From assembly GCF_988243305.1 (NCBI RefSeq), contig NZ_OZ547136.1: 64,000 nucleotides of DNA; one strand, given 5' to 3'. The notes under the pieces were generated by a model. The model did no database searches. It was not told the DNA's origin and worked only from the letters and a program-made list of their open reading frames with translations. The number at the start of each line of letters is the position of its first letter. Within the stretch, counting starts at the first letter, position 1. This document shows, one piece after another, positions 523 through 12,633 of this stretch. The translations under genes were made by a program, and so were the position numbers.

Positions 523-1611
523 ATGAACAACCGGGAGAAGGAGATCCTTGCAATTTTACGGCGTAACCCGCTGATTCAGCAGAACGAAATTGCGGATATG
601 CTGCAAATCAGCCGTTCGCGCGTTGCGGCGCATATTATGGATTTAATGCGCAAAGGCCGGATTAAAGGCAAAGGTTACATTCTCACCGAGCAGGAATACT
701 GCGTAGTGGTGGGGACAATCAATATGGATATTCGCGGGATGGCGGATATCCGTTACCCGCAAGCGGCTTCTCATCCCGGTACCATTCATTGCTCGGCAGG
801 CGGCGTTGGACGCAATATCGCCCACAATCTGGCGCTGTTAGGCCGCGACGTCCATTTGCTTTCAGTGATTGGCGATGACTTTTATGGCGAAATGCTCCTG
901 GAAGAAACGCGCCGCGCCGGCGTGAATGTCTCCGGCTGCGTTCGTTTACATGGCCAAAGCACATCGACGTATCTGGCAATTGCCGATCGAGACGATCAAA
1001 TCGTGCTGGCGATTAACGATACCCATCTGCTGGATCAGTTGACACCGCAACTACTGAACGGGTCGCGCGATTTACTTCGTCATGCGGGCGTGGTACTGGC
1101 TGATTGCAACCTGACAGCCGAGGCGCTGGAGTGGGTCTTTACCCTCGCTGATGAAATCCCGGTGTTTGTCGATACCGTTTCAGAATTCAAAGCGGGCAAA
1201 ATCAAACACTGGCTGGCGCATATTCACACCCTGAAACCCACTTTACCGGAGCTGGAAATTTTATGGGGACAGGCGATCACCAGCGATGCTGACCGTAATG
1301 CCGCAGTGAATGCGTTGCATCAGCAAGGCGTTCAGCAACTGTTTGTTTATTTGCCCGATGAGTCTGTTTATTGCAGCGAAAAGGATGGAGAACAATTTTT
1401 GCTGACAGCGCCAGCGCATACGACAGTAGACAGTTTTGGTGCTGACGATGGTTTTATGGCGGGCCTGGTATATAGCTTTCTGGAGGGAAACAATTTCCGT
1501 GACAGCGCCCGTTTTGCGATGGCCTGCGCGGCAATTTCACGCGCCAGCGGCAGCTTAAACAACCCTACCCTGTCTGCCGATAATGCGCTGTCATTAGTGC
1601 CAATGGTGTAA
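523..1611 (+). CDS. yeiI: Putative sugar/nucleoside kinase with N-terminal winged-HTH domain (PfkB family)
   Basis: 362-aa ORF; N-terminal HTH followed by a PfkB kinase domain with a GGVGRNIA motif that is also present in PsuK in this window. Confidence 0.85.
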   Translation: MNNREKEILAILRRNPLIQQNEIADMLQISRSRVAAHIMDLMRKGRIKGKGYILTEQEYCVVVGTINMDIRGMADIRYPQAASHPGTIHCSAGGVGRNIAHNLALLGRDVHLLSVIGDDFYGEMLLEETRRAGVNVSGCVRLHGQSTSTYLAIADRDDQIVLAINDTHLLDQLTPQLLNGSRDLLRHAGVVLADCNLTAEALEWVFTLADEIPVFVDTVSEFKAGKIKHWLAHIHTLKPTLPELEILWGQAITSDADRNAAVNALHQQGVQQLFVYLPDESVYCSEKDGEQFLLTAPAHTTVDSFGADDGFMAGLVYSFLEGNNFRDSARFAMACAAISRASGSLNNPTLSADNALSLVPMV

Positions 1612-1617
1612 CAATGT

Positions 1618-1652
1618 TGCCGGATTCGACGCTTGACCGCATCTAATCCGGC
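1618..1652. repeat. REP-like palindromic unit (GCCGGAT...ATCCGGC)
   Basis: Inverted repeat gccggatt / aatccggc in the yeiI-nupX convergent gap. Confidence 0.5.
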
Positions 1653-1666
1653 TCATAAATTGCACA

Positions 1667-2917
1667 CTACGCTAAACCAATAAAGAACCCGGCAATGGTG
1701 GCACTCATCAGATTAGAAAGTGTCGCCGCCGCCAGCGCGCGTAAACCAAGCTGGGCGATTTCCGGCGCACGGTGTGGCGCAACCGCAGAAAACGCCCCCA
1801 CCACCACCCCGATAGAACCAAAGTTAGCGAAACCGCACAACGCGAAAGAAATAATCGCCACGGTTTTAGCATCCAGAGTGCCAGCTGTTTGCAGATAAGG
1901 TGAGAAATTGAGGTAAGCGACAAATTCATTAATCGCCAGTTTCTGTCCAATCAAACTCCCGGCAAGATTCGCATCACTCCAGTCAACCCCCATCACCCAC
2001 GCCAGCGGGGCCAGCAGGTAACCTAAAATGGACTCCAGCGAGGCATGTTCAAAACCAAACCAGCCGCCAACGCCGCCGATAATACCGTTAATTAACGCAA
2101 TGATGGCGACAAATGCCATCACTACTGTCGCCACACCTGCGGCGATTTTCAGCCCGGTCATTGCCCCTGTAGCGGCGGCTTCAATAATGCTTTTTGGCGG
2201 TGTTTCGGTGAAAGAGAGGTTATTAAAGGAAACCTGCGAAGATTCGGTAGCCGGGCTTAACAGGCGGGCAAACAAGATCCCGCCAGGGATCGCCATTAAC
2301 GATGCCGCCAGCAGATATTCCACAGGCACGCCCAGTGCAGCGTAACCAATCATTGTCGAACCAGCAATCGAGGCCATGCCACTACAAATCGCTGTAAATA
2401 ATTCATTGCGATTCAGCCGATCGATAAAGGGTTTGACGATTGCCGGAATTTCGTTTTGCCCGAGGAAAATGGTAGTGACCGCGACGAATGACTCGATCTT
2501 GCTGATATTTAATGCTTTCTGGAAGATACCGCCGAGAATGCGAATTAAGATCCCCATCACACCGATGTAGTAGAGAATACTCACCAGTGCTGTAACGAAG
2601 ATAATTGCCGGTAATACCCTGAAACCAAAGATAAATCCTGCGCCATCAAATAAGGTATCCATTTTCGGTCCGACCAGAGAACCAAAGATAAATGCGCTAC
2701 CTGCATCGCTGTACGCCATCACTTTATGCACGCCAAAAGCGACTTTTTCTGCGACCCAACGCCCTGGTGGTAACCAAAGCATAATGCCGCCAATCACGAC
2801 CTGTAACACTAACGCCGCGCCAACGGTACGCAGGCTGATCTTCTTCTTGTTTACTGACAGCAAAAACGCAATTGCCAGTAATACCACCATTCCCAGAACA
2901 CTTCTCATGACATCCAT
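1667..2917 (-). CDS. nupX: Nucleoside permease, concentrative nucleoside transporter (CNT) family
   Basis: 416-aa polytopic membrane ORF; close paralog of PsuT at 4855..6105 over the whole length. Confidence 0.9.
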   Translation of the reverse strand: MDVMRSVLGMVVLLAIAFLLSVNKKKISLRTVGAALVLQVVIGGIMLWLPPGRWVAEKVAFGVHKVMAYSDAGSAFIFGSLVGPKMDTLFDGAGFIFGFRVLPAIIFVTALVSILYYIGVMGILIRILGGIFQKALNISKIESFVAVTTIFLGQNEIPAIVKPFIDRLNRNELFTAICSGMASIAGSTMIGYAALGVPVEYLLAASLMAIPGGILFARLLSPATESSQVSFNNLSFTETPPKSIIEAAATGAMTGLKIAAGVATVVMAFVAIIALINGIIGGVGGWFGFEHASLESILGYLLAPLAWVMGVDWSDANLAGSLIGQKLAINEFVAYLNFSPYLQTAGTLDAKTVAIISFALCGFANFGSIGVVVGAFSAVAPHRAPEIAQLGLRALAAATLSNLMSATIAGFFIGLA

Positions 2918-2942
2918 AGTTATTATCTCTTCATGTCATTTT

Positions 2943-2970
2943 GGGCGACGGCTTTCTGCCCATCAGAAAT
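2943..2970 (-). other. Conserved 28-nt leader element, copy 1 (rihB-nupX gap)
   Basis: 27/28 identical to 6172..6199; on the minus-strand RNA it can form a 5-bp stem GAYGG/CCGTC with loop GCAGAAAG. Confidence 0.4.
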
Positions 2971-3016
2971 AGCCGGGCCTGCATCTTGCGATACTGTCCC
3001 GGCTTGTTATCAACAC

Positions 3017-3958
3017 TTAATGGGTTTTGATGTAGCCGCGCACGCACTCTTCGACTAATCCCCAGAACCAGTCGGTATCAATAGTGATGCCGACTTTGGT
3101 ATTGGCGGGCTTGCCAAGAACGCCCAGCTCGTCGCAGACGGTACGCCCATAGCAAGGGCCACTGTTAACGTCCACGTCGACGTACATCTCCTGGGTTTTA
3201 ATGCCATCAGGGTTAATCAGATAACCGATGCAGGTGGCGTCATGCACCGGGCCGCCAGCAAGGCCGTAGTTTTCGAACTGCGTTTTGAGAGTGAAGTTCA
3301 TGATGTCGCTGAACAGCTCTCCGGCGGGGCCGCCTGCCCTTTCCATCCGTGCAATCACGTCCGGGGTGCAAACGGTCTGGTTGGTGAGATCGAGGCCCAT
3401 CATCACTAATGGAACGCCGGAGGTGAACACCACGCGTGCCGCTTCCGGGTCAGCAAAGATGTTGAACTCGGCGGATGGCGTAAAGTTGCCAGTACCGTAA
3501 GCGCCGCCCATCAGCACAATTTCACGGATTTTCGGCAGGATCGCGGGTTGCATACGCATTGCCACCGCGATGTTTGAAAGTGGACCAACCGGCACCAGAG
3601 TGATATCGCCATCGCTTGCCATCAGGGTATCGATGATATATTTCACCGCATGAGTGCTTTCTGCCTGGCGGGTCAGCGGCCCGAATACCGGGCCATCAAG
3701 TCCGGTTTCACCGTGAATATTATCGGCAACGATTTGTTGACGCATAATGGGCTGTGGCATCCCCGCATAAACCGGAACATTAATCTCCAGTTTCTGGCAA
3801 ACATTCAGGCCATTAATTAATGTTTTATCGAGGGTTTGATTACCCGCTACAATGGTGATACCTAATAAATCTATTGCCGGATGTTTCGCTGCCATCATTA
3901 TTGCAATAGCATCATCATGACCCGGATCACAATCCAGGATAATTTTTCTTTTTTCCAT
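3017..3958 (-). CDS. rihB: Ribonucleoside hydrolase (pyrimidine-specific)
   Basis: 313-aa ORF with N-terminal DCDPGHDD nucleoside hydrolase signature. Confidence 0.9.
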
Positions 3959-4126
3959 TGTTTATTTCCTCTGTTTCCAGTTGCGTTATTTTTTCTACAG
4001 CAAAGAAAATTCGACCGGGCCGATGATTGAATCTTAACAACAGCGTACGTATGCTAAATATGAGAAATCTCATAGCGGATAAACATCGTGAAAGAAATCC
4101 ACAATAATGATCTTAAGCAGCAATTG

Positions 4127-4786
4127 ATGAGTGAATCAGCGTTTAAGGATTGCTTTTCAACGGATGTTTCAGCCGATACGCGGCTGTTTCATTTTTTAGC
4201 GCGTGACTACATTGTGAAGGAAGGGCAACAGCCGTCCTGGCTGTTTTACCTGACGCGAGGCCGCGCCAGGCTTTACGCCACGCTTGCTAATGGTCGCGTG
4301 TCGCTGATCGATTTCTTTGCCGCGCCCTGTTTTATTGGCGAGATTGAGTTAATCGATAAAGACCATGAACCGCGTGCGGTGCAGGCTATTGAAGAGTGTT
4401 GGTGTCTTGCGCTCCCTATGAAACATTACCGCCCGCTGTTATTAAACGACACACTATTTTTACGAAAACTCTGCGTTAGTTTAAGCCATAAAAATTATCG
4501 CAATATTGTTTCTTTAACTCAGAATCAATCATTTCCGTTAGTGAATCGCCTGGCAGCTTTTATATTACTCTCACAAGAAGGTGATCTTTATCACGAAAAG
4601 CATACGCAAGCGGCAGAGTATTTAGGCGTTTCTTATCGACATCTTTTATATGTTCTCGCGCAATTCATTCACGACGGTTTATTAATTAAAAGCAAGAAAG
4701 GATATCTAATTAAAAACAGAAAGCAGTTGTCAGGACTGGCGCTGGAGATGGACCCGGAGAATAAATTCTCCGGGATGATGCAGTAA
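4127..4786 (+). CDS. yeiL: CRP/FNR-family transcriptional regulator
   Basis: ORF track starts at GTG 4088 (232 aa); ATG at 4127 gives the 219-aa form I recall for YeiL. Start is uncertain. Confidence 0.8.
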
Positions 4787-4807
4787 AAAATAATCTGCAA
4801 TAGCACG

Positions 4808-4848
4808 ATTGCCGGATGTGACGCTTAATAAGCGCGTACATCCGGCAA
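4808..4848. repeat. REP-like palindromic unit
   Basis: Inverted repeat tgccggatgt...acatccggca in the yeiL-psuT convergent gap. Confidence 0.5.
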
Positions 4849-4854
4849 TGACAC

Positions 4855-6105
4855 TCAAGCTAAACCAATAAAGAACCCGGCAATGGTCGCGCTCATCAGG
4901 TTGGAAAGCGTTGCTGCTGCCAGCGCCCTTAAACCAAGCTGAGCGATTTCCGGAGCACGTTTTGGCGAAATAGCCGAAAATGCCCCAACGACAACACCGA
5001 TAGAACCAAAGTTAGCAAAACCACAAAGCGCAAAGGAGATAATCGCAATGGTTTTCACTTCCAGCGTGCCGCCCGTTTGCAGGTATGGGGAGAAACTCAG
5101 GTAAGCGACGAATTCGTTAATCGCCAGTTTCTGCCCAATCAGGCTACCCGCAAGGTTGGCATCACTCCAGTCCACACCCATGATCCACGCCAGCGGTGCC
5201 AGCACATAGCCAAAAATACTTTCCAGAGAGGCATTGGCGAAACCAAACCAGCCGCCAATTCCGCCGATAATGCCGTTGATCAGCGCAATAATTGCGACAA
5301 ACGCCATTACCACCGTCGCTACACCAGCGGCGATTTTCAGCCCGGTCATCGCACCGCTCGCCGCCGCTTCGATAAAGCTTTTTGGCGGCGTTTCGCTGAA
5401 CGACAGATTTTCAAATGTCACCTGCGAAGGCTCGGTGGCTGGGCTAAGAATACGTGCAAACAAAATACCACCAGGGATCGCCATCAGCGATGCCGCTAAC
5501 AGGTAGTCAATTGGTACGCCCATTCCGGCATAACCAATCATCATCGAACCAGCAATGGACGCCATCCCGCTACAAATTGCGGTAAACAACTCGTTGCGAT
5601 TCATGCGATCGATAAACGGTTTAACGATCGCAGGGATCTCATTTTGCCCGAGGAAAATAGTGGTAACCGCAACAAAAGATTCGATTTTGCTGATGTTGAG
5701 GGCTTTCTGGAAAATGCTGCCAAGGATGCGGATTAGCAGCCCCATCACGCCAATGTAGTACAGCAGGCTGATGAGCGCAGTGACGAAGATAATCGCCGGG
5801 AGTACGCGAAAGGCGAAGATAAAGCCCGCGCCATCAAACAGGACATCCATTTTCGGCCCGACCAATGAACCAAAAATAAAGGCACTACCGGCATCACTGT
5901 AAGACATCACTTTATGAACGCCTAATGCCGCCTGCTCTACCGCCCATTTTCCTGGTGGAAAATAGAGCATGATGCCGCCAATGGCGATTTGTAGCAGCAG
6001 CGCGGCTCCAACCGTGCGCAAACTGATGCTCTTTTTATTCACTGACAACAAAAATGCTATTGCCAGTAACACCACCATCCCCACAACACTTCTCATTATA
6101 TCCAT
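4855..6105 (-). CDS. psuT: Pseudouridine/nucleoside transporter (CNT family)
   Basis: 416-aa ORF paralogous to nupX; last gene of the psuK-psuG-psuT operon. Confidence 0.9.
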   Translation of the reverse strand: MDIMRSVVGMVVLLAIAFLLSVNKKSISLRTVGAALLLQIAIGGIMLYFPPGKWAVEQAALGVHKVMSYSDAGSAFIFGSLVGPKMDVLFDGAGFIFAFRVLPAIIFVTALISLLYYIGVMGLLIRILGSIFQKALNISKIESFVAVTTIFLGQNEIPAIVKPFIDRMNRNELFTAICSGMASIAGSMMIGYAGMGVPIDYLLAASLMAIPGGILFARILSPATEPSQVTFENLSFSETPPKSFIEAAASGAMTGLKIAAGVATVVMAFVAIIALINGIIGGIGGWFGFANASLESIFGYVLAPLAWIMGVDWSDANLAGSLIGQKLAINEFVAYLSFSPYLQTGGTLEVKTIAIISFALCGFANFGSIGVVVGAFSAISPKRAPEIAQLGLRALAAATLSNLMSATIAGFFIGLA

Positions 6106-6171
6106 AATGATTTTCCCTTCATGCCAGTAAACCCGGCGTCAGCGCCAGGTTTTGGTATGTATGATCAGTAC

Positions 6172-6199
6172 GGGCGACGGCTTTCTGCCCGTCAGAAAT
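6172..6199 (-). other. Conserved 28-nt leader element, copy 2 (psuG-psuT gap, overlaps psuG stop by 1 nt)
   Basis: 27/28 identical to 2943..2970. Confidence 0.4.
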
Positions 6200-7137
6200 T
6201 AACCCGCGAGACGCTGGTATTCTTTGGCAATTTCACTCGCCAGAATGGCGTTGTTGAACACCAGTTGGATGTTGGATTTCAGGCTGTCACCGCCAGTCAG
6301 TTCAGCAACACGAGCCAGCAGGAACGGTGTGCTTTCTTTACCAATAACGCCCTGCTCTTCGGCTTCGGCAACGGCTTGATCTATGGCTGCATTGATAGAT
6401 TCCTCCGGCATCGCAAACTGTTCCGGGATCGGATTTGCCACCACCAGGCCACCGTTCAGCCCGCTTTGCCATTTCACCGCCATTGCATGGGCAATTTCAC
6501 TGGCGCTGTCGAGACGAATACTGACGTCAAACGGGCTGGTACGGCAGAAAAACGCAGGCAGCGCTTTGGTCTGATAGCCAATTAACGGCACACCGAAGGT
6601 TTCTAAATACTCAGTGGTTAATCCTAAATCGAGAATAGATTTCGCCCCGGCACAAACAACGGTGACATTAGTATTTGCCAGTTCTTGCAAATCGGCAGAA
6701 ATATCGAAGGTATGTTCCGCCCCGCGATGCACACCACCAATTCCCCCTGTGGCAAATACTTTAATTCCGGCAAGCGCCGCAATAATCATCGTTGAAGCAA
6801 CGGTAGTTGCGCCATTTTTTCCGGCGGCAACAACAAAAGGTAAATCGCGACGACTAACTTTGGTCACGTTATGCCCTTCACGACCCAGCAATTCAATTTC
6901 TTCTTTGCTTAAACCCACTTTCATCACGCCGCCAATAATGGCGATAGTGGCAGGTACAGCGCCCTGTTTACGAATAGTTTCTTCAACTTCAATTGCGGTC
7001 TGGGCATTTTGTGGGAACGGCATCCCGTGAGAAATAATGGTCGATTCCAGCGCCACAACCGGTTTTTTGTTTTTTAAAGCGTCCTGCACTTCCGGGGAAA
7101 TTTGTAATAATTCAGGGGAAATTTTTAATTCAGACAT
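6199..7137 (-). CDS. psuG: Pseudouridine-5'-phosphate glycosidase
   Basis: 312-aa ORF matching the PsuG/YeiN family; overlaps psuK by 13 nt. Confidence 0.9.
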   Translation of the reverse strand: MSELKISPELLQISPEVQDALKNKKPVVALESTIISHGMPFPQNAQTAIEVEETIRKQGAVPATIAIIGGVMKVGLSKEEIELLGREGHNVTKVSRRDLPFVVAAGKNGATTVASTMIIAALAGIKVFATGGIGGVHRGAEHTFDISADLQELANTNVTVVCAGAKSILDLGLTTEYLETFGVPLIGYQTKALPAFFCRTSPFDVSIRLDSASEIAHAMAVKWQSGLNGGLVVANPIPEQFAMPEESINAAIDQAVAEAEEQGVIGKESTPFLLARVAELTGGDSLKSNIQLVFNNAILASEIAKEYQRLAG

Positions 7138-8066
7138 TCTGCGTTCTCCACTAACGATATAACGTTGGCAATCGATAAATCGGGGTTATTGGTGTATTCA
7201 CAGGAGAGCGCCATTGACGAACATCCCTGTGCGAAACGAACAGATTCGGCAAACGGCATTCCGTCTACCCAACACGAAGCAAGCCCCGCCATCATGGCAT
7301 CGCCCGCTCCGGTAACATTAATAACATTGGTTTTGATCGGCGCAGACCAGCCACTTTCACCGCTGATATCACTGTAATAAACGCCATCGCCGCCCATGCT
7401 CAATACCAGTCGGTTCAGGCCATGTTGATGGAACCAGGCAGCAACTTTTGCCACATCTTCACGCCCTGACAGCGCAATCCCACTCAGGGTTTCCGCTTCA
7501 AGGCGGTTTGGCTTGAGAGTGTGGATTTGATTTAGACGGTCGCGCACTTTGACACATTTCCATGCGGAAACCGGATCGACAAATACGGGTACGTTGGCGG
7601 CATTATCCAGAATCCATGCCAGTGCCTCTTCACTGATATTACAGTCTGCGACAATGACCTTTGCCCTCTGAATAAATTCACGGTGCTGTGCGAGATATTC
7701 AGCTGTAATAGCGTTGCTAATATTCATGTCATTTATAGCAACCAGCATTTCACCGGTATTATCGAGTAATGATAAATAGCTTGACGTATTTTCTCCCGGC
7801 ACAATCAGGCATTTATCGACATAAACGCCAGATTGATTGGTTTGCGTTAGCAGCGATTGACCATAAAAATCACTGCCTACGGCGCTCAGTAGCCAGGCTT
7901 TGTTCTCCAGCAACGCCAGGTTTTGTGCAATATTGCGCCCGACTCCACCAGGCGTAAATTTTATTTTACCTGGATTTGAATCCGCATAATTTAATGATTC
8001 ATGTGAATATCCGGCGACATCAATATTCGCCGAACCTATAATTACGACATAATCCTTTTCGCGCAT
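7125..8066 (-). CDS. psuK: Pseudouridine kinase (PfkB family)
   Basis: 313-aa ORF with PfkB motifs GGVGRNIA and GAGD; first gene of the psu operon. Confidence 0.9.
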   Translation of the reverse strand: MREKDYVVIIGSANIDVAGYSHESLNYADSNPGKIKFTPGGVGRNIAQNLALLENKAWLLSAVGSDFYGQSLLTQTNQSGVYVDKCLIVPGENTSSYLSLLDNTGEMLVAINDMNISNAITAEYLAQHREFIQRAKVIVADCNISEEALAWILDNAANVPVFVDPVSAWKCVKVRDRLNQIHTLKPNRLEAETLSGIALSGREDVAKVAAWFHQHGLNRLVLSMGGDGVYYSDISGESGWSAPIKTNVINVTGAGDAMMAGLASCWVDGMPFAESVRFAQGCSSMALSCEYTNNPDLSIANVISLVENAECLN

Positions 8067-8133
8067 AGCACGTCCTCTGGTAAAAAATTACCACCCCTGT
8101 CAATCCACAAGAATATTGATACTGCAAAGACGG

Positions 8134-8169
8134 TTTAAACATGTGTTCATATTTAAACATGTGCTCATA
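8134..8169 (-). promoter_or_regulatory. Tandem 18-bp direct repeat in psuK promoter region (candidate operator)
   Basis: tttaaacatgtgttcata followed directly by tttaaacatgtgctcata (17/18), 68-103 nt upstream of the psuK ATG. Confidence 0.4.
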
Positions 8170-8304
8170 GTATGCATGTTTTACGTAAAGTAAATTACCG
8201 CCAGAGAGGCAAAATGGGCAGATTTGAGCAGGCTCACAAAACGCGATTAAATGCCTGAATTATAAAAACGGGGAATTTGTGACGGGATGCACAGAACAGG
8301 AACA

Positions 8305-8334
8305 ATAAAAAAGGGCAGAAATTAATCTGCCCTT
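8305..8334 (-). terminator. Intrinsic terminator downstream of fruA
   Basis: 9-bp perfect stem AAGGGCAGA/TCTGCCCTT followed on the minus strand by a T run. A second hairpin with no clear U tract lies at 8452..8476. Confidence 0.6.
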
Positions 8335-8489
8335 GAGGAAATAACCTTAGTGTTTGATGAAGGTTTCAGGTTTCTACTAAAAGATAAAACCATTTAAATT
8401 CATAAAATTACATTCACAAACCGGTCATTCTCTTTGCGCGCATCAAATGTTACAGGGCAGGAAATTTCTGCCCTGTAACACACCTTTTA

Positions 8490-10181
8490 TTACGCTGCTT
8501 TCGCTACTGCGTCCACTTCCGGACGTTTCAGGAAGGCATAGGCCAGACCCGCCACCAGCGTACCGGCAATAATGGCTACCAGGTAACCCAATACCGGCGT
8601 AATCGCGCCAGGGATCAGCAGAACAAACAGACCACCGTGCGGTGCCATCAGTTTCGCACCAATCGCCATTGAGATTGCGCCAGTCAGCGCCCCACCCACG
8701 ATACAGCACGGCAGCACACGCATCGGATCACGGGCAGCAAACGGAATTGCACCTTCCGAAATAAAGCACAGTCCCAGTACCAGAGCGGCTTTGCCCCCTT
8801 CCTGCTGCGCTTTGTCGAATTTGCGACGCGCCACCATTGTTGCCAGGCCCATTGCCAGCGGTGGCACCATACCTGCCGCCATAATCGCCGCCATCGGGCC
8901 ATAGGTTTGAGTACTCAGCAGACCCACACCGAACGCGTACGCTGCTTTGTTTACCGGACCGCCCATGTCAGTACACATCATGCCACCGAGGATCGCCCCC
9001 AGCAGAACCGCATTCGCAGTCCCCATGGTCTGCAGCCAGTGAGTCAACCCTTCGAGAATGCCAGCAACCGGTTTACCGATCAGATAGATCATCGCCAGAC
9101 CGACCACCAGACTGGAAATTAGCGGAATGATCAGAATCGGTTTCAGCGCCTCCATACTCTGCGGCAGTTTCAATTGCGTACTGATTAACTTCGCAATGTA
9201 ACCAGCCAGGAAGCCCGCAATAATACCGCCAATGAAGCCAGAACCGGTGCTGACCGCCAGCATACCGCCAATCAGACCCGGCGTGAGACCCGGACGATCG
9301 GCAATGGAAAAGGCAATATAACCTGCCAGTACCGGCACCATCAACGCAAAGGCTGAACCACCACCAATCTGCATCAGCGCCGCAGCCAACGTACCCGGCT
9401 CTTTAAACGCTTCGATACCAAAAGCAAAAGAAAGCGCGATACACAGACCACCTGCAACGACCATCGGCAGCATGTAAGAGACGCCCGTCAGCAAGTGACG
9501 GTAAGCGCCTGCACTCTCTTTCTTACCTTCAGTGGTCGCTGTTTGAGTTTTGCCCGCCGGTTCATACGGCGTTGCTTCAGCAACCGCTTTATCCAGTTCC
9601 TGCGCGGTTTTCTTCAGCGCCAGACCGGTAGAGGTGCGATACATCGGTTTACCAGCAAATTTCGCCAGATCCACTTCAATATCTGCCGCCACAATCACCA
9701 GATCCGCTGCGGCTACTTCTTCAGGGGTGATTGCATTACCCGCGCCAACCGAACCACGGGTTTCAACTTTCACCCACCAGCCACGTTTTTTCGCTTCGGT
9801 TTCAATGGCTTCAGCCGCCATAAAGGTGTGTGCTACGCCAGTCGGGCAAGCAGTCACCGCAACTACGCGTTTCGGACCGCTGGCGGCAACCGGTGCTGTC
9901 GCAGCGACCGGCGCAGTGTAAGGTTTCGCATGGCCTTTGGCTTCACTCAGGAACAGCTCAGGGTGCGCAACTGCCCGGGAAATATCGCCCAGCCAGACAT
10001 TTTTACCGTTCAGCGCGCTGTCGTTCGGGATGGAATCACCGAGAACAATCGCCATTTCAGCGTCGTTCGGATTGTCGATGATTTCCAGTTTTGCTTTTCG
10101 CGCCGCCGCGCCCAGCAGGGTCTTCGCCATATAGGCGCGTGCCTGACCGAGATTAGCGTCAATAATCAGCAGCGTTTTCAT
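8490..10181 (-). CDS. fruA: PTS fructose-specific EIIB'BC component
   Basis: 563-aa ORF with polytopic C-terminal domain; operon fruB-fruK-fruA. Confidence 0.95.
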   Translation of the reverse strand: MKTLLIIDANLGQARAYMAKTLLGAAARKAKLEIIDNPNDAEMAIVLGDSIPNDSALNGKNVWLGDISRAVAHPELFLSEAKGHAKPYTAPVAATAPVAASGPKRVVAVTACPTGVAHTFMAAEAIETEAKKRGWWVKVETRGSVGAGNAITPEEVAAADLVIVAADIEVDLAKFAGKPMYRTSTGLALKKTAQELDKAVAEATPYEPAGKTQTATTEGKKESAGAYRHLLTGVSYMLPMVVAGGLCIALSFAFGIEAFKEPGTLAAALMQIGGGSAFALMVPVLAGYIAFSIADRPGLTPGLIGGMLAVSTGSGFIGGIIAGFLAGYIAKLISTQLKLPQSMEALKPILIIPLISSLVVGLAMIYLIGKPVAGILEGLTHWLQTMGTANAVLLGAILGGMMCTDMGGPVNKAAYAFGVGLLSTQTYGPMAAIMAAGMVPPLAMGLATMVARRKFDKAQQEGGKAALVLGLCFISEGAIPFAARDPMRVLPCCIVGGALTGAISMAIGAKLMAPHGGLFVLLIPGAITPVLGYLVAIIAGTLVAGLAYAFLKRPEVDAVAKAA

Positions 10182-12368: not shown

Positions 12369-12633
12369 AAAGCATAATACTTCTGTTTCAGCACGCAAGG
12401 AAAGCCGTAAAGTTATGAGCAAAAGTTTGATGTGCTGCACAATTTTTTGTCATTTTTCCTAATTGCTGATGGGAAAATCCGTTATCAGCAATTTCATTTC
12501 AGCAGCGTCAGCAGCCAATCAGCAACAGTGAAATGGCATTTTGATTATTCGTGGCGCTTTTGATTTCGCTGTCTGTTTATTTTCTGACAAGCAGCGTAAA
12601 CTCCGCGTCTTCCTCTTCCAGTGATCGACCAGC

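Follow-up and report, generated by a model that had tools for sequence, protein, structure and literature searches.

NagC and Mlc of Escherichia coli, members of the ROK family, carry an N-terminal winged helix-turn-helix (wHTH) joined to a sugar-kinase-like sensor, bind boxes of about 23 bp and use looping pairs of sites about 90-100 bp apart. Enzyme and repressor are combined in BirA, the biotin ligase and bio repressor, with which NadR is grouped here. The nucleoside genes deo, udp, cdd, nupC, nupG and tsx are controlled by CytR or DeoR together with cyclic AMP (cAMP)-CRP from operators near or overlapping the core promoter; the motif of CytR is TGCAA, and those of DeoR are TGTTAGAA and TTCTAACA. 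Here we describe the promoter region of the pseudouridine salvage operon psuK-psuG-psuT in a stretch of 64,000 nucleotides of E. coli DNA (NCBI RefSeq assembly GCF_988243305.1, contig NZ_OZ547136.1; hereafter the window), in which two 12-bp palindromic boxes, O1 and O2, form a putative double operator at psuK. We favour, with moderate confidence, the statement that this double operator is bound by YeiI, a protein composed of a wHTH and a PfkB-type kinase domain, and that psuK-psuG-psuT is thereby repressed.

YeiI resembles NagC and Mlc in that it would be a catabolic repressor made of a wHTH and a domain homologous to the pathway kinase, and in being paralogous to a true kinase of the same genome; likewise, the psu operator would consist of paired palindromes overlapping the promoter, with CRP as candidate co-regulator. 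Unlike in NagC and Mlc, the sensor is of the PfkB/ribokinase and not of the ROK/ASKHA type, the sites are 12-bp dyads 18 bp apart, and binding by YeiI is a prediction. The fused HTH-PsuK proteins of Yersinia, Serratia, Pasteurella, Shewanella and others, which keep the catalytic motif and head their own operon behind such boxes, recall BirA and NadR and suggest a pathway enzyme that may also be its own autoregulator, although enzyme family and ligand are different and in E. coli the two roles appear to be split between PsuK and YeiI. With the CytR and DeoR systems the psu operon would share the control of nucleoside genes by a specific repressor and cAMP-CRP from an operator at the core promoter, but the repressor families differ (CytR is of the LacI type) and none of the CytR or DeoR motifs occurs in the psuK boxes. 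The pattern GAAC-N4-GTTC also recalls the Cheo box of Gram-positive LexA/DinR (CGAAC-N4-GTTCG), and box O2 of Escherichia albertii, taken together with its flanking bases (CCGAACATATGTTCT), could be mistaken for one. The likeness is confined to the sequence: the psu genes are catabolic, the motif travels with the HTH-PfkB gene and not with lexA, and LexA of E. coli recognizes CTG-N10-CAG. The inverted AAACA/TGTTT half-sites are likewise similar to the box of the IclR-family regulator KdgR (AAATGAAACA-N-TGTTTCATTT), which differs in its one-base centre, as against two bases in 27 of 27 psu boxes, and no psu-linked gene of the IclR family was found in the loci examined.

Results

Two 12-bp dyads at the psuK promoter

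The elements on which the description is based are the following.

7125-8066, minus strand: psuK, pseudouridine kinase, first gene of psuK-psuG-psuT, with its ATG at 8066 (open reading frame and annotation)
8134-8169, no strand assigned: tandem repeat of two 18-bp units, whose similarity past the 12-bp cores (6 of 6 flank positions matching) is specific to this E. coli haplotype
8155-8166, minus strand: box O1, GAGCACATGTTT in psuK sense, a 12-bp dyad abutting the predicted -10 and centred on the predicted +1, inside the unit 8152-8169
8137-8148, minus strand: box O2, GAACACATGTTT in psuK sense, 18 bp downstream of O1 and centred near +19, inside the unit 8134-8151

The first-pass annotation had pointed to a tandem 18-bp direct repeat 68-103 nt upstream of the psuK start and had taken it for a two-site operator. 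The repeat and its distance from the ATG were confirmed: 8134-8151 reads TTTAAACATGTGTTCATA and 8152-8169 reads TTTAAACATGTGCTCATA, head to tail, with one base differing (17/18 identical). Tandem Repeats Finder (TRF) returns this array with period 18, 2.0 copies and score 65, the second-highest among the 13 arrays of the window, and since by our own arithmetic only about 5e-5 adjacent 17/18 matches are expected in 64 kb, the repeat is not due to chance.

Each 18-mer contains a dyad of the pattern RAACA-YR-TGYTY (looser consensus nAnCA-YR-TGnTn). We aligned the regions upstream of orthologous psuK genes from other Escherichia, E. albertii, a metagenome-assembled genome (MAG) labelled Raoultella, Buttiauxella and four Citrobacter genomes (12 promoters), to which Salmonella and Enterobacter were added to give 14 promoters from six genera. 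In psuK sense the 12 aligned promoters share one order of elements: ATTTAC(T/A)TT, a 16-nt spacer with AAAAC-N-YGC in it, a TACTAT-like sequence, box 1 immediately 3' of it with the form (G/A)A(A/G)CA-YR-TGTT(T/C), six bases, and box 2 with the form GAACA-YR-TG(T/C)T(T/C). Box O1 stands at the same place in all 14 promoters, and the spacing between the boxes is constant at 18 bp throughout. Among the 24 boxes of the 12-promoter alignment, positions A2, C4, A5, T8, G9 and T11 are invariant and pair as a perfect dyad, while the central two bases vary as YR (CA, TG, CG or TA). The twofold symmetry held when 27 boxes from both gene architectures described below were pooled, the geometry being 5-N2-5 in all 27; box O2 of E. 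albertii is a perfect palindrome (GAACATATGTTC). The conserved blocks of the 12-promoter alignment, whose mean column identity is 71%, are the two boxes, the -35 and -10 hexamers and a CRP-like site, and Salmonella and Enterobacter concur.

The two units of 18 bp, by contrast, do not stay alike. Their mutual identity, 17/18 with flanks 6/6 in the window and the K-12 haplotype, is 13/18 in a second E. coli haplotype and in E. albertii, 10-12/18 in Citrobacter, Buttiauxella and Enterobacter, and 7/18 in Salmonella. Because the dyads persist while the 18-mer identity drops to 7-13/18, the selected unit is the pair of 12-bp inverted repeats 18 bp apart and not the 18-bp direct repeat. The two-site layout proposed in the first-pass annotation is conserved across many genera, with a different unit, and of the repeat it is the two boxes, not the near-identical 18-mers, that related genomes retain outside the K-12-type haplotype. 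A direct-repeat array of the iteron or the response-regulator/AraC type was ruled out on the same ground, since the head-to-tail unit is not conserved and the palindromic cores are. The boxes are very likely a protein-binding operator, judging from this pattern of conservation.

Further copies were sought within the 64-kb window. The exact 15-mer AAACATGTGYTCATA occurs there twice, both times within the repeat; with three near-matches elsewhere (2-3 mismatches) the total is five, compared to a mean of 3.25 in shuffled sequence, which is chance level. One of the candidates, AAACTTTTGCTCATA near the fruB promoter (12414-12428, 2 mismatches), was put down to chance as well. A position-weight-matrix scan of the window returned O1, O2 and one lone match inside coding sequence, and no box near yeiI, nupX, rihB or yeiL. 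The lone match, a perfect single box (AAACATGTGTTC, 23775-23786) in a 364-aa open reading frame (ORF; 22950-24044, a yejB-like permease), has no partner box, about 0.25-0.5 such matches are expected by chance in 64 kb, and it was rejected as a site. With a matrix built from the boxes of Escherichia, Citrobacter, Buttiauxella and the Raoultella-labelled MAG, a scan of 170 kb (seven independent loci and the window) detected pairs of boxes 17-20 bp apart at psu promoters and nowhere else, these being in the window and at five of the seven independent loci; shuffled sequence gave 0.1 pairs per whole set.

The predicted psuK promoter and a recurrent mutation in its -35 hexamer

The predicted promoter elements around the boxes, all in psuK orientation, are listed below.

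8167-8172, minus strand: predicted -10, TACTAT, immediately 5' of O1 in all 14 promoters
8189-8194, minus strand: predicted -35, TTTACT, with a 16-nt spacer to the -10
8160, minus strand: predicted psuK transcription start (A), placed from the position of the -10, 7 nt past it, which would give a 94-nt 5' untranslated region; it corresponds to about 2259390 in K-12 (NC_000913.3)
8192, minus strand: recurrent adaptive single-nucleotide polymorphism (SNP) psuK -126, A>C on the plus strand, third base of the -35 (TTTACT to TTGACT)
8174-8181, minus strand: half-site AAACATGC (AAAAC-A-YGC) in the -35/-10 spacer
8223-8238, minus strand: CRP-like site TGTGA-GCCTGC-TCAAA in psuK sense, centre 8230.5, about -70.5 from the predicted start

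The -10 has the form TACTAT, TATTAT, TATCAT or TACAGT in 13 of the 14 promoters and is degenerate (CAATAC) in Enterobacter. The block ATTTAC(T/A)TT is kept in 12 of the 14; Citrobacter werkmanii (GTTTACTTT) retains the hexamer, and Enterobacter (ATTCCGTTT) is again degenerate. Relative to the predicted start, O1 would cover -6 to +6 and O2 +13 to +24, so that together they would extend from about -6 to +24. The boxes are not placed upstream of the predicted promoter, given that the -10 abuts box 1 and that the -126 SNP falls in the -35: they cover the predicted start and the bases just past it.

The mutation A>C at psuK -126 has been selected repeatedly. It was called by breseq as 'intergenic (-126/+297)' psuK/fruA in three of four long-term stationary-phase cultures (PMC7858067), and in five of seven mice an A>C change appeared at K-12 position 2257444, between the same two genes psuK and fruA (PMC9509342). 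The authors of the latter study name the region the psuK promoter and report altered growth and altered psuK expression (PMC9509342). A 'promoter transversion' at psuK is also recorded in the literature for two further evolution lines. We take the mouse coordinate 2257444 to be -126 in an older K-12 numbering; base change and flanking genes agree. The -126 base and its context were verified on MG1655, and the window is identical to K-12 here. Since -126 A>C turns the conserved TTTACT into TTGACT, it supports the assignment of the -35 hexamer.

Upstream of the core promoter, the block TTGTGA..TG.TCA.ATCT lies at a fixed distance from the -35 in 12 of 12 aligned promoters and also in Salmonella and Enterobacter; in form and position it is a genuine-looking class I CRP site, so that CRP, which had been put forward as a regulator to check, has a conserved candidate site. 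The third, inverted ACATG core noted earlier at about 8174 was found as GCATGTTT at 8174-8181, where an AAACA half-site is conserved in the spacer (A150-A152, C153, G156 and C157 of the 12-promoter alignment are invariant). Its right half departs from the box, and by its sequence the element is a half-site only and not a full third box.

A small hairpin, TGGTAA-TTTT-TTACCA (8078-8093, minus strand), abuts the ribosome-binding site of psuK just 5' of the Shine-Dalgarno sequence GAGGA. Compensatory changes preserve its stem in other genera (GGTAA/TTACC and GGCAA/TTGCC; GGCAT/ATGCC in Salmonella), which points to a conserved stem-loop in the leader or else to another palindromic site. Between fruA, which ends at 8490, and the psuK promoter lie two terminator-like hairpins (8311-8334 and 8448-8480) with the common core AGGGCAGAAATT/AATTTCTGCCCT; the distal one directly follows the fruA stop, and the proximal one would shield psuK from read-through from fruBKA.

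Gene neighbourhoods and the candidate regulator YeiI

The gene proposed to encode the operator-binding protein is found at the other end of the psu region.

523-1611, plus strand: yeiI, candidate operator-binding protein, with a wHTH (HTH_24) and a PfkB domain 40% identical to PsuK (BLASTP)

In every examined locus with enough flanking sequence an HTH-PfkB gene adjoins psuKGT or heads it. Among the loci with a separate psuK (split type), the Enterobacter order is nfo-yeiI, then the convergent psuT-psuG-psuK, then fruAKB, so that yeiI adjoins psuT. The same convergent arrangement in Salmonella gives a four-gene block of yeiI and psuTGK. On the Salmonella enterica contig AAOFJQ010000019.1 (6056-11315) the neighbours of this block are not nfo and fruA but a RelB/ParE toxin-antitoxin pair and a transposase gene, which suggests that yeiI and psuT-psuG-psuK move as a horizontally transferred module. 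In Citrobacter (C. braakii) and Buttiauxella the opposite strand carries, directly past psuT, an ORF with 77-79% identity to the C-terminal half of YeiI (partial, being cut by the end of the fetched DNA). E. coli differs from the other split-type loci only by the presence of nupX-rihB-yeiL between yeiI and psuT. In the window yeiI starts 2 bp past the stop of nfo (endonuclease IV, Pfam AP_endonuc_2; 520-523), and the same nfo-yeiI junction is found in Enterobacter; since there is no box or obvious promoter in between, yeiI is probably co-transcribed with nfo.

The fused type, found in Yersinia, Serratia, Xenorhabdus, Photorhabdus, Pasteurella, Chelonobacter, Shewanella and Aliivibrio, has no separate psuK, and an HTH-PfkB gene heads an HTH-PfkB/psuG(/psuT) operon. 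Two boxes of the same type, 18-19 bp apart, lie directly upstream of the true start of the HTH-PfkB gene in seven of these eight loci. Yersinia, Serratia and Photorhabdus, where the start codon was corrected by nine codons according to the protein alignment, have the order TTTACT-N17-TAAAAC, box, N6, box, ATG; Pasteurella and Chelonobacter have AAACAAAAGTTG-N6-AAACAGGTGTTG; in Shewanella and Aliivibrio the boxes are 19 bp apart.

The wHTH is the best-conserved part of these proteins, being 65-91% identical to that of E. coli YeiI in all homologues, with the recognition helix ISRS.VA.HI retained throughout. In their kinase domains the fused proteins resemble PsuK (40-59% identity) more than YeiI (38-48%). 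PsuK and all fused HTH-PsuK proteins have the motif GAGD, while all four YeiI orthologues, from split-type genomes, have GADD; YeiI is thus without the intact GXGD anion-hole/catalytic-base motif of active PfkB kinases, and from this degraded motif we infer a consequence for catalysis. A psuK mutant is unable to use pseudouridine (cited in PMC12506659), and YeiI is therefore no substitute for the kinase. The residues S30, N143 and K170, which are reported to hold pseudouridine in E. coli PsuK (EcPsuK; PMC9061257), are conserved in YeiI in our alignment. EcPsuK is a homodimer in which an inter-subunit loop closes on the ligand (PMC9247573); by analogy, such loop closure could plausibly translate ligand binding into an altered HTH geometry. 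YeiI has so far been listed as an uncharacterized sugar kinase (PMC9061257, PMC12506659), no HTH-PfkB protein was found in the PDB, and the NCBIfam name is merely 'sugar kinase'.

Variation of the repeat within E. coli

The window belongs to a non-K-12 E. coli; the psuK segment has 100% identity to strain GMF065 and about 97% to K-12 lines. Of the 4219 complete genomes that carry this haplotype, 4213 have the 81-nt promoter/operator segment at full length and without gaps, and in 2747 it is 100% identical. From the -10 to the ATG, E. coli has 100 nt as against 103-104 elsewhere; the distance is not longer in E. coli, and its repeat is therefore no additional, inserted unit. The near-perfect identity of the two 18-mers may rather reflect a recent, secondary homogenization of two older sites in this haplotype, by slippage or conversion. 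In strain EA7 exactly one 18-bp unit (matching 8134-8151) is deleted and box O2 thereby lost, so such copy-number events do occur; in the same strain IS5 is inserted just upstream of the CRP-like site (about window position 8245), and psuK may be derepressed or activated in this allele.

The yeiI-psuK region (window 523-8500) occurs in E. coli in two deeply divergent haplotypes. In about 2000 of 5422 E. coli genomes the DNA identity of yeiI is only about 81%, and in about 1200 genomes psuK and its promoter were missed by megablast; the latter are probably of the divergent, E. albertii-like type found in strain SCU-112. Strain E110019 is a mosaic of divergent yeiI and K-12-type psuK promoter. 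A second tandem repeat, at the psuK/psuG overlap (7090-7129; period 21, 1.9 copies, TRF score 66), is coding and duplicates the peptide KISPEL/QISPEV at the N-terminus of PsuG.

Discussion

The boxes are probably bound by YeiI, an assignment in which we have good, though not high, confidence. It rests on sequence comparison, and the operator might instead be genuine with another binder, such as YeiL, an IclR/KdgR-like or DeoR/GlpR-like protein or a further factor, which we consider unlikely. YeiL, a protein of the CRP/FNR family and the second regulator-like protein nearby, is encoded at 4088-4786, only about 3.3 kb from the boxes, and it had been named together with the HTH domain of YeiI as a local candidate. 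However, none of the psu neighbourhoods of Citrobacter, Buttiauxella, Enterobacter and Salmonella contains yeiL, nor does any fused-type locus, though the boxes are still present there, and CRP/FNR sites have the form 5-N6-5 or 5-N4-5, whereas the boxes are 5-N2-5. A site for YeiL or CRP at the repeat is thus not supported: the arms of the boxes have neither spacing, and no cNMP_binding/HTH_Crp gene lies near psu in the other loci examined. As for the other families, the half-sites do look like those of the KdgR box AAACA-N-TGTTT, but its centre is one base and that of the psu boxes always two. The inter-box arrangement TGTTT-N6-GAACA resembles the GlpR operator TGTTCGATATCGAACA; it was rejected because the gap between the boxes varies between 6 and 7 nt (spacing 18 or 19 bp) while the geometry within a box is fixed, so that the conserved palindrome is the intra-box one. 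The HTH-PfkB gene, on the other hand, is the sole gene co-occurring with the boxes in every lineage examined, and this linkage strongly favours YeiI among the two local candidates.

If YeiI does bind the boxes, it could activate psuK or have a dual role. The weak core promoter (8 of 12 hexamer positions) would suit such a role, as would the strong selection of a -35 up-mutation if it reflects an activator-limited promoter; yet sites at +1 and +19 overlap the region of RNA polymerase, which is the classical position of repressors and one rarely used by activators, and a separate CRP-like site already lies at class I activator distance. We therefore regard activation as improbable. A role at the RNA level, in which the two units form a hairpin in the 5' leader and affect mRNA stability or translation, is if anything slightly more doubtful. 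Nucleotides 3-28 of the predicted E. coli leader can fold into an 11-bp stem from both units, and the folding z-score of the complete 97-nt leader is -2.65, but the stem depends on the haplotype-specific flanks and is missing from the consensus fold of ten orthologous leaders, in which the repeat region has no local hairpin. Moreover, a 12-bp dyad with a 2-nt centre is unable to form a hairpin alone, the upstream half of O1 is conserved though it lies ahead of the predicted start, the fused-type operons have the same boxes but a different leader, and no Rfam match had an E-value below 0.6 (at a permissive threshold, with chance-level matches only). That the repeat is a recent, neutral tandem duplication of 18 bp without function is very hard to credit. 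The 17/18 identity including 6/6 flanks suggests recent copying and one strain, EA7, has lost a unit; but equally spaced boxes exist in genera whose 18-mers are only 7-13/18 identical, the stretch from -10 to ATG in E. coli is not 18 bp longer, and nearly all haplotype-bearing genomes (4213 of 4219) retain two copies.

Repression by YeiI through the double operator has several observations to contend with. Box O2 is degenerate in Salmonella (GAAAATGCGCTC) and Enterobacter (AAACATAAGCTC), and in the Xenorhabdus promoter only degenerate boxes were found. With their centres 18 bp apart, two dimers come to lie on different faces of the helix, an unusual arrangement for a cooperative pair. The matrix scan found no box at yeiI itself in E. 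coli or Salmonella and hence no sign of autoregulation in the split form. The phenotype of the psuK mutant fits YeiI not being a kinase, without making it a regulator. With regard to the promoter, the supplementary tables of the Cappable-seq study (PMC4782308) and of Kim et al. 2012 (PMC3415461), which may be truncated, list no transcription start site near the predicted one in either K-12 numbering scheme; silence of the psuK promoter in laboratory media is another possible reason. A simple sigma-70 consensus scanner passed over the psuK promoter, because its hexamers match only 8 of 12 consensus positions at a threshold of 9; its sole call was an irrelevant plus-strand site inside psuK. Finally, a related, longer palindrome (AACCAAACA-N2-TGTTTGGTT) occurs about 250-285 bp upstream of the HTH-psuK start in three fused-type loci, besides the promoter-proximal boxes, and may be an auxiliary or looping site or part of something else.

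Yersinia locus 6749-6768, Serratia locus about 6742-6761, Xenorhabdus locus 6716-6727: far-upstream palindrome

Under repression by YeiI, the protein would dimerize by its PfkB domain, like its dimeric paralogue PsuK, and the wHTHs of one dimer would contact each box. With -6 to +24 occupied, RNA polymerase would be prevented from binding, from forming the open complex or from escaping the promoter, and the operon would stay repressed until pseudouridine or pseudouridine 5'-phosphate bound to the kinase-like domain and freed YeiI from O1 and O2. The CRP site near -70.5 would add catabolite control to a weak, CRP-dependent promoter, and the -126 SNP would strengthen the binding of RNA polymerase and thus raise expression despite the repressor.

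The distribution of the two gene architectures suggests how such a system could have arisen. The ancestor may have been a single autoregulated HTH-psuK gene heading the operon, whose product was both enzyme and repressor; a duplication in the lineage of Escherichia, Citrobacter, Enterobacter and Salmonella would then have yielded psuK, which lost the HTH, and yeiI, which kept it while its catalytic motif degraded, the operator remaining where it was. We see about even chances for the broader view that YeiI is the founding member of one-component regulators with a degenerate PfkB-kinase sensor, that autoregulation by a bifunctional HTH-PsuK through a double operator persists in Yersinia, Serratia, the Pasteurellaceae, Shewanella and the Vibrionaceae while the duplicates of the E. 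coli lineage subfunctionalized into a pure enzyme, PsuK, and a pure pseudouridine sensor-repressor, YeiI, and that the -126 SNP out-competes the repressor.

The pseudouridine salvage operon of E. coli is without a described regulator in searchable papers, and no description of a regulator or operator of psuK was found in the searchable literature on psuK, yeiI, yeiL, PsuR and psuT/yeiM. The pair of operator and regulator proposed here is a well-supported new computational assignment of a familiar kind, with an unusual sensor domain. It would give the orphan gene yeiI a concrete, testable function and a DNA target, and would offer a natural example of an enzyme/regulator fusion that was split into two genes. 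The recurrence of psuK/fruA -126 A>C in mouse-gut colonization, long-term stationary phase and metabolic-engineering lines could be explained as a -35 up-mutation of a repressed, CRP-dependent promoter. Moreover, strains for the production of pseudouridine for mRNA already delete or overexpress psuK, psuG and psuT, and knowledge of the repressor and its operator would be useful there.

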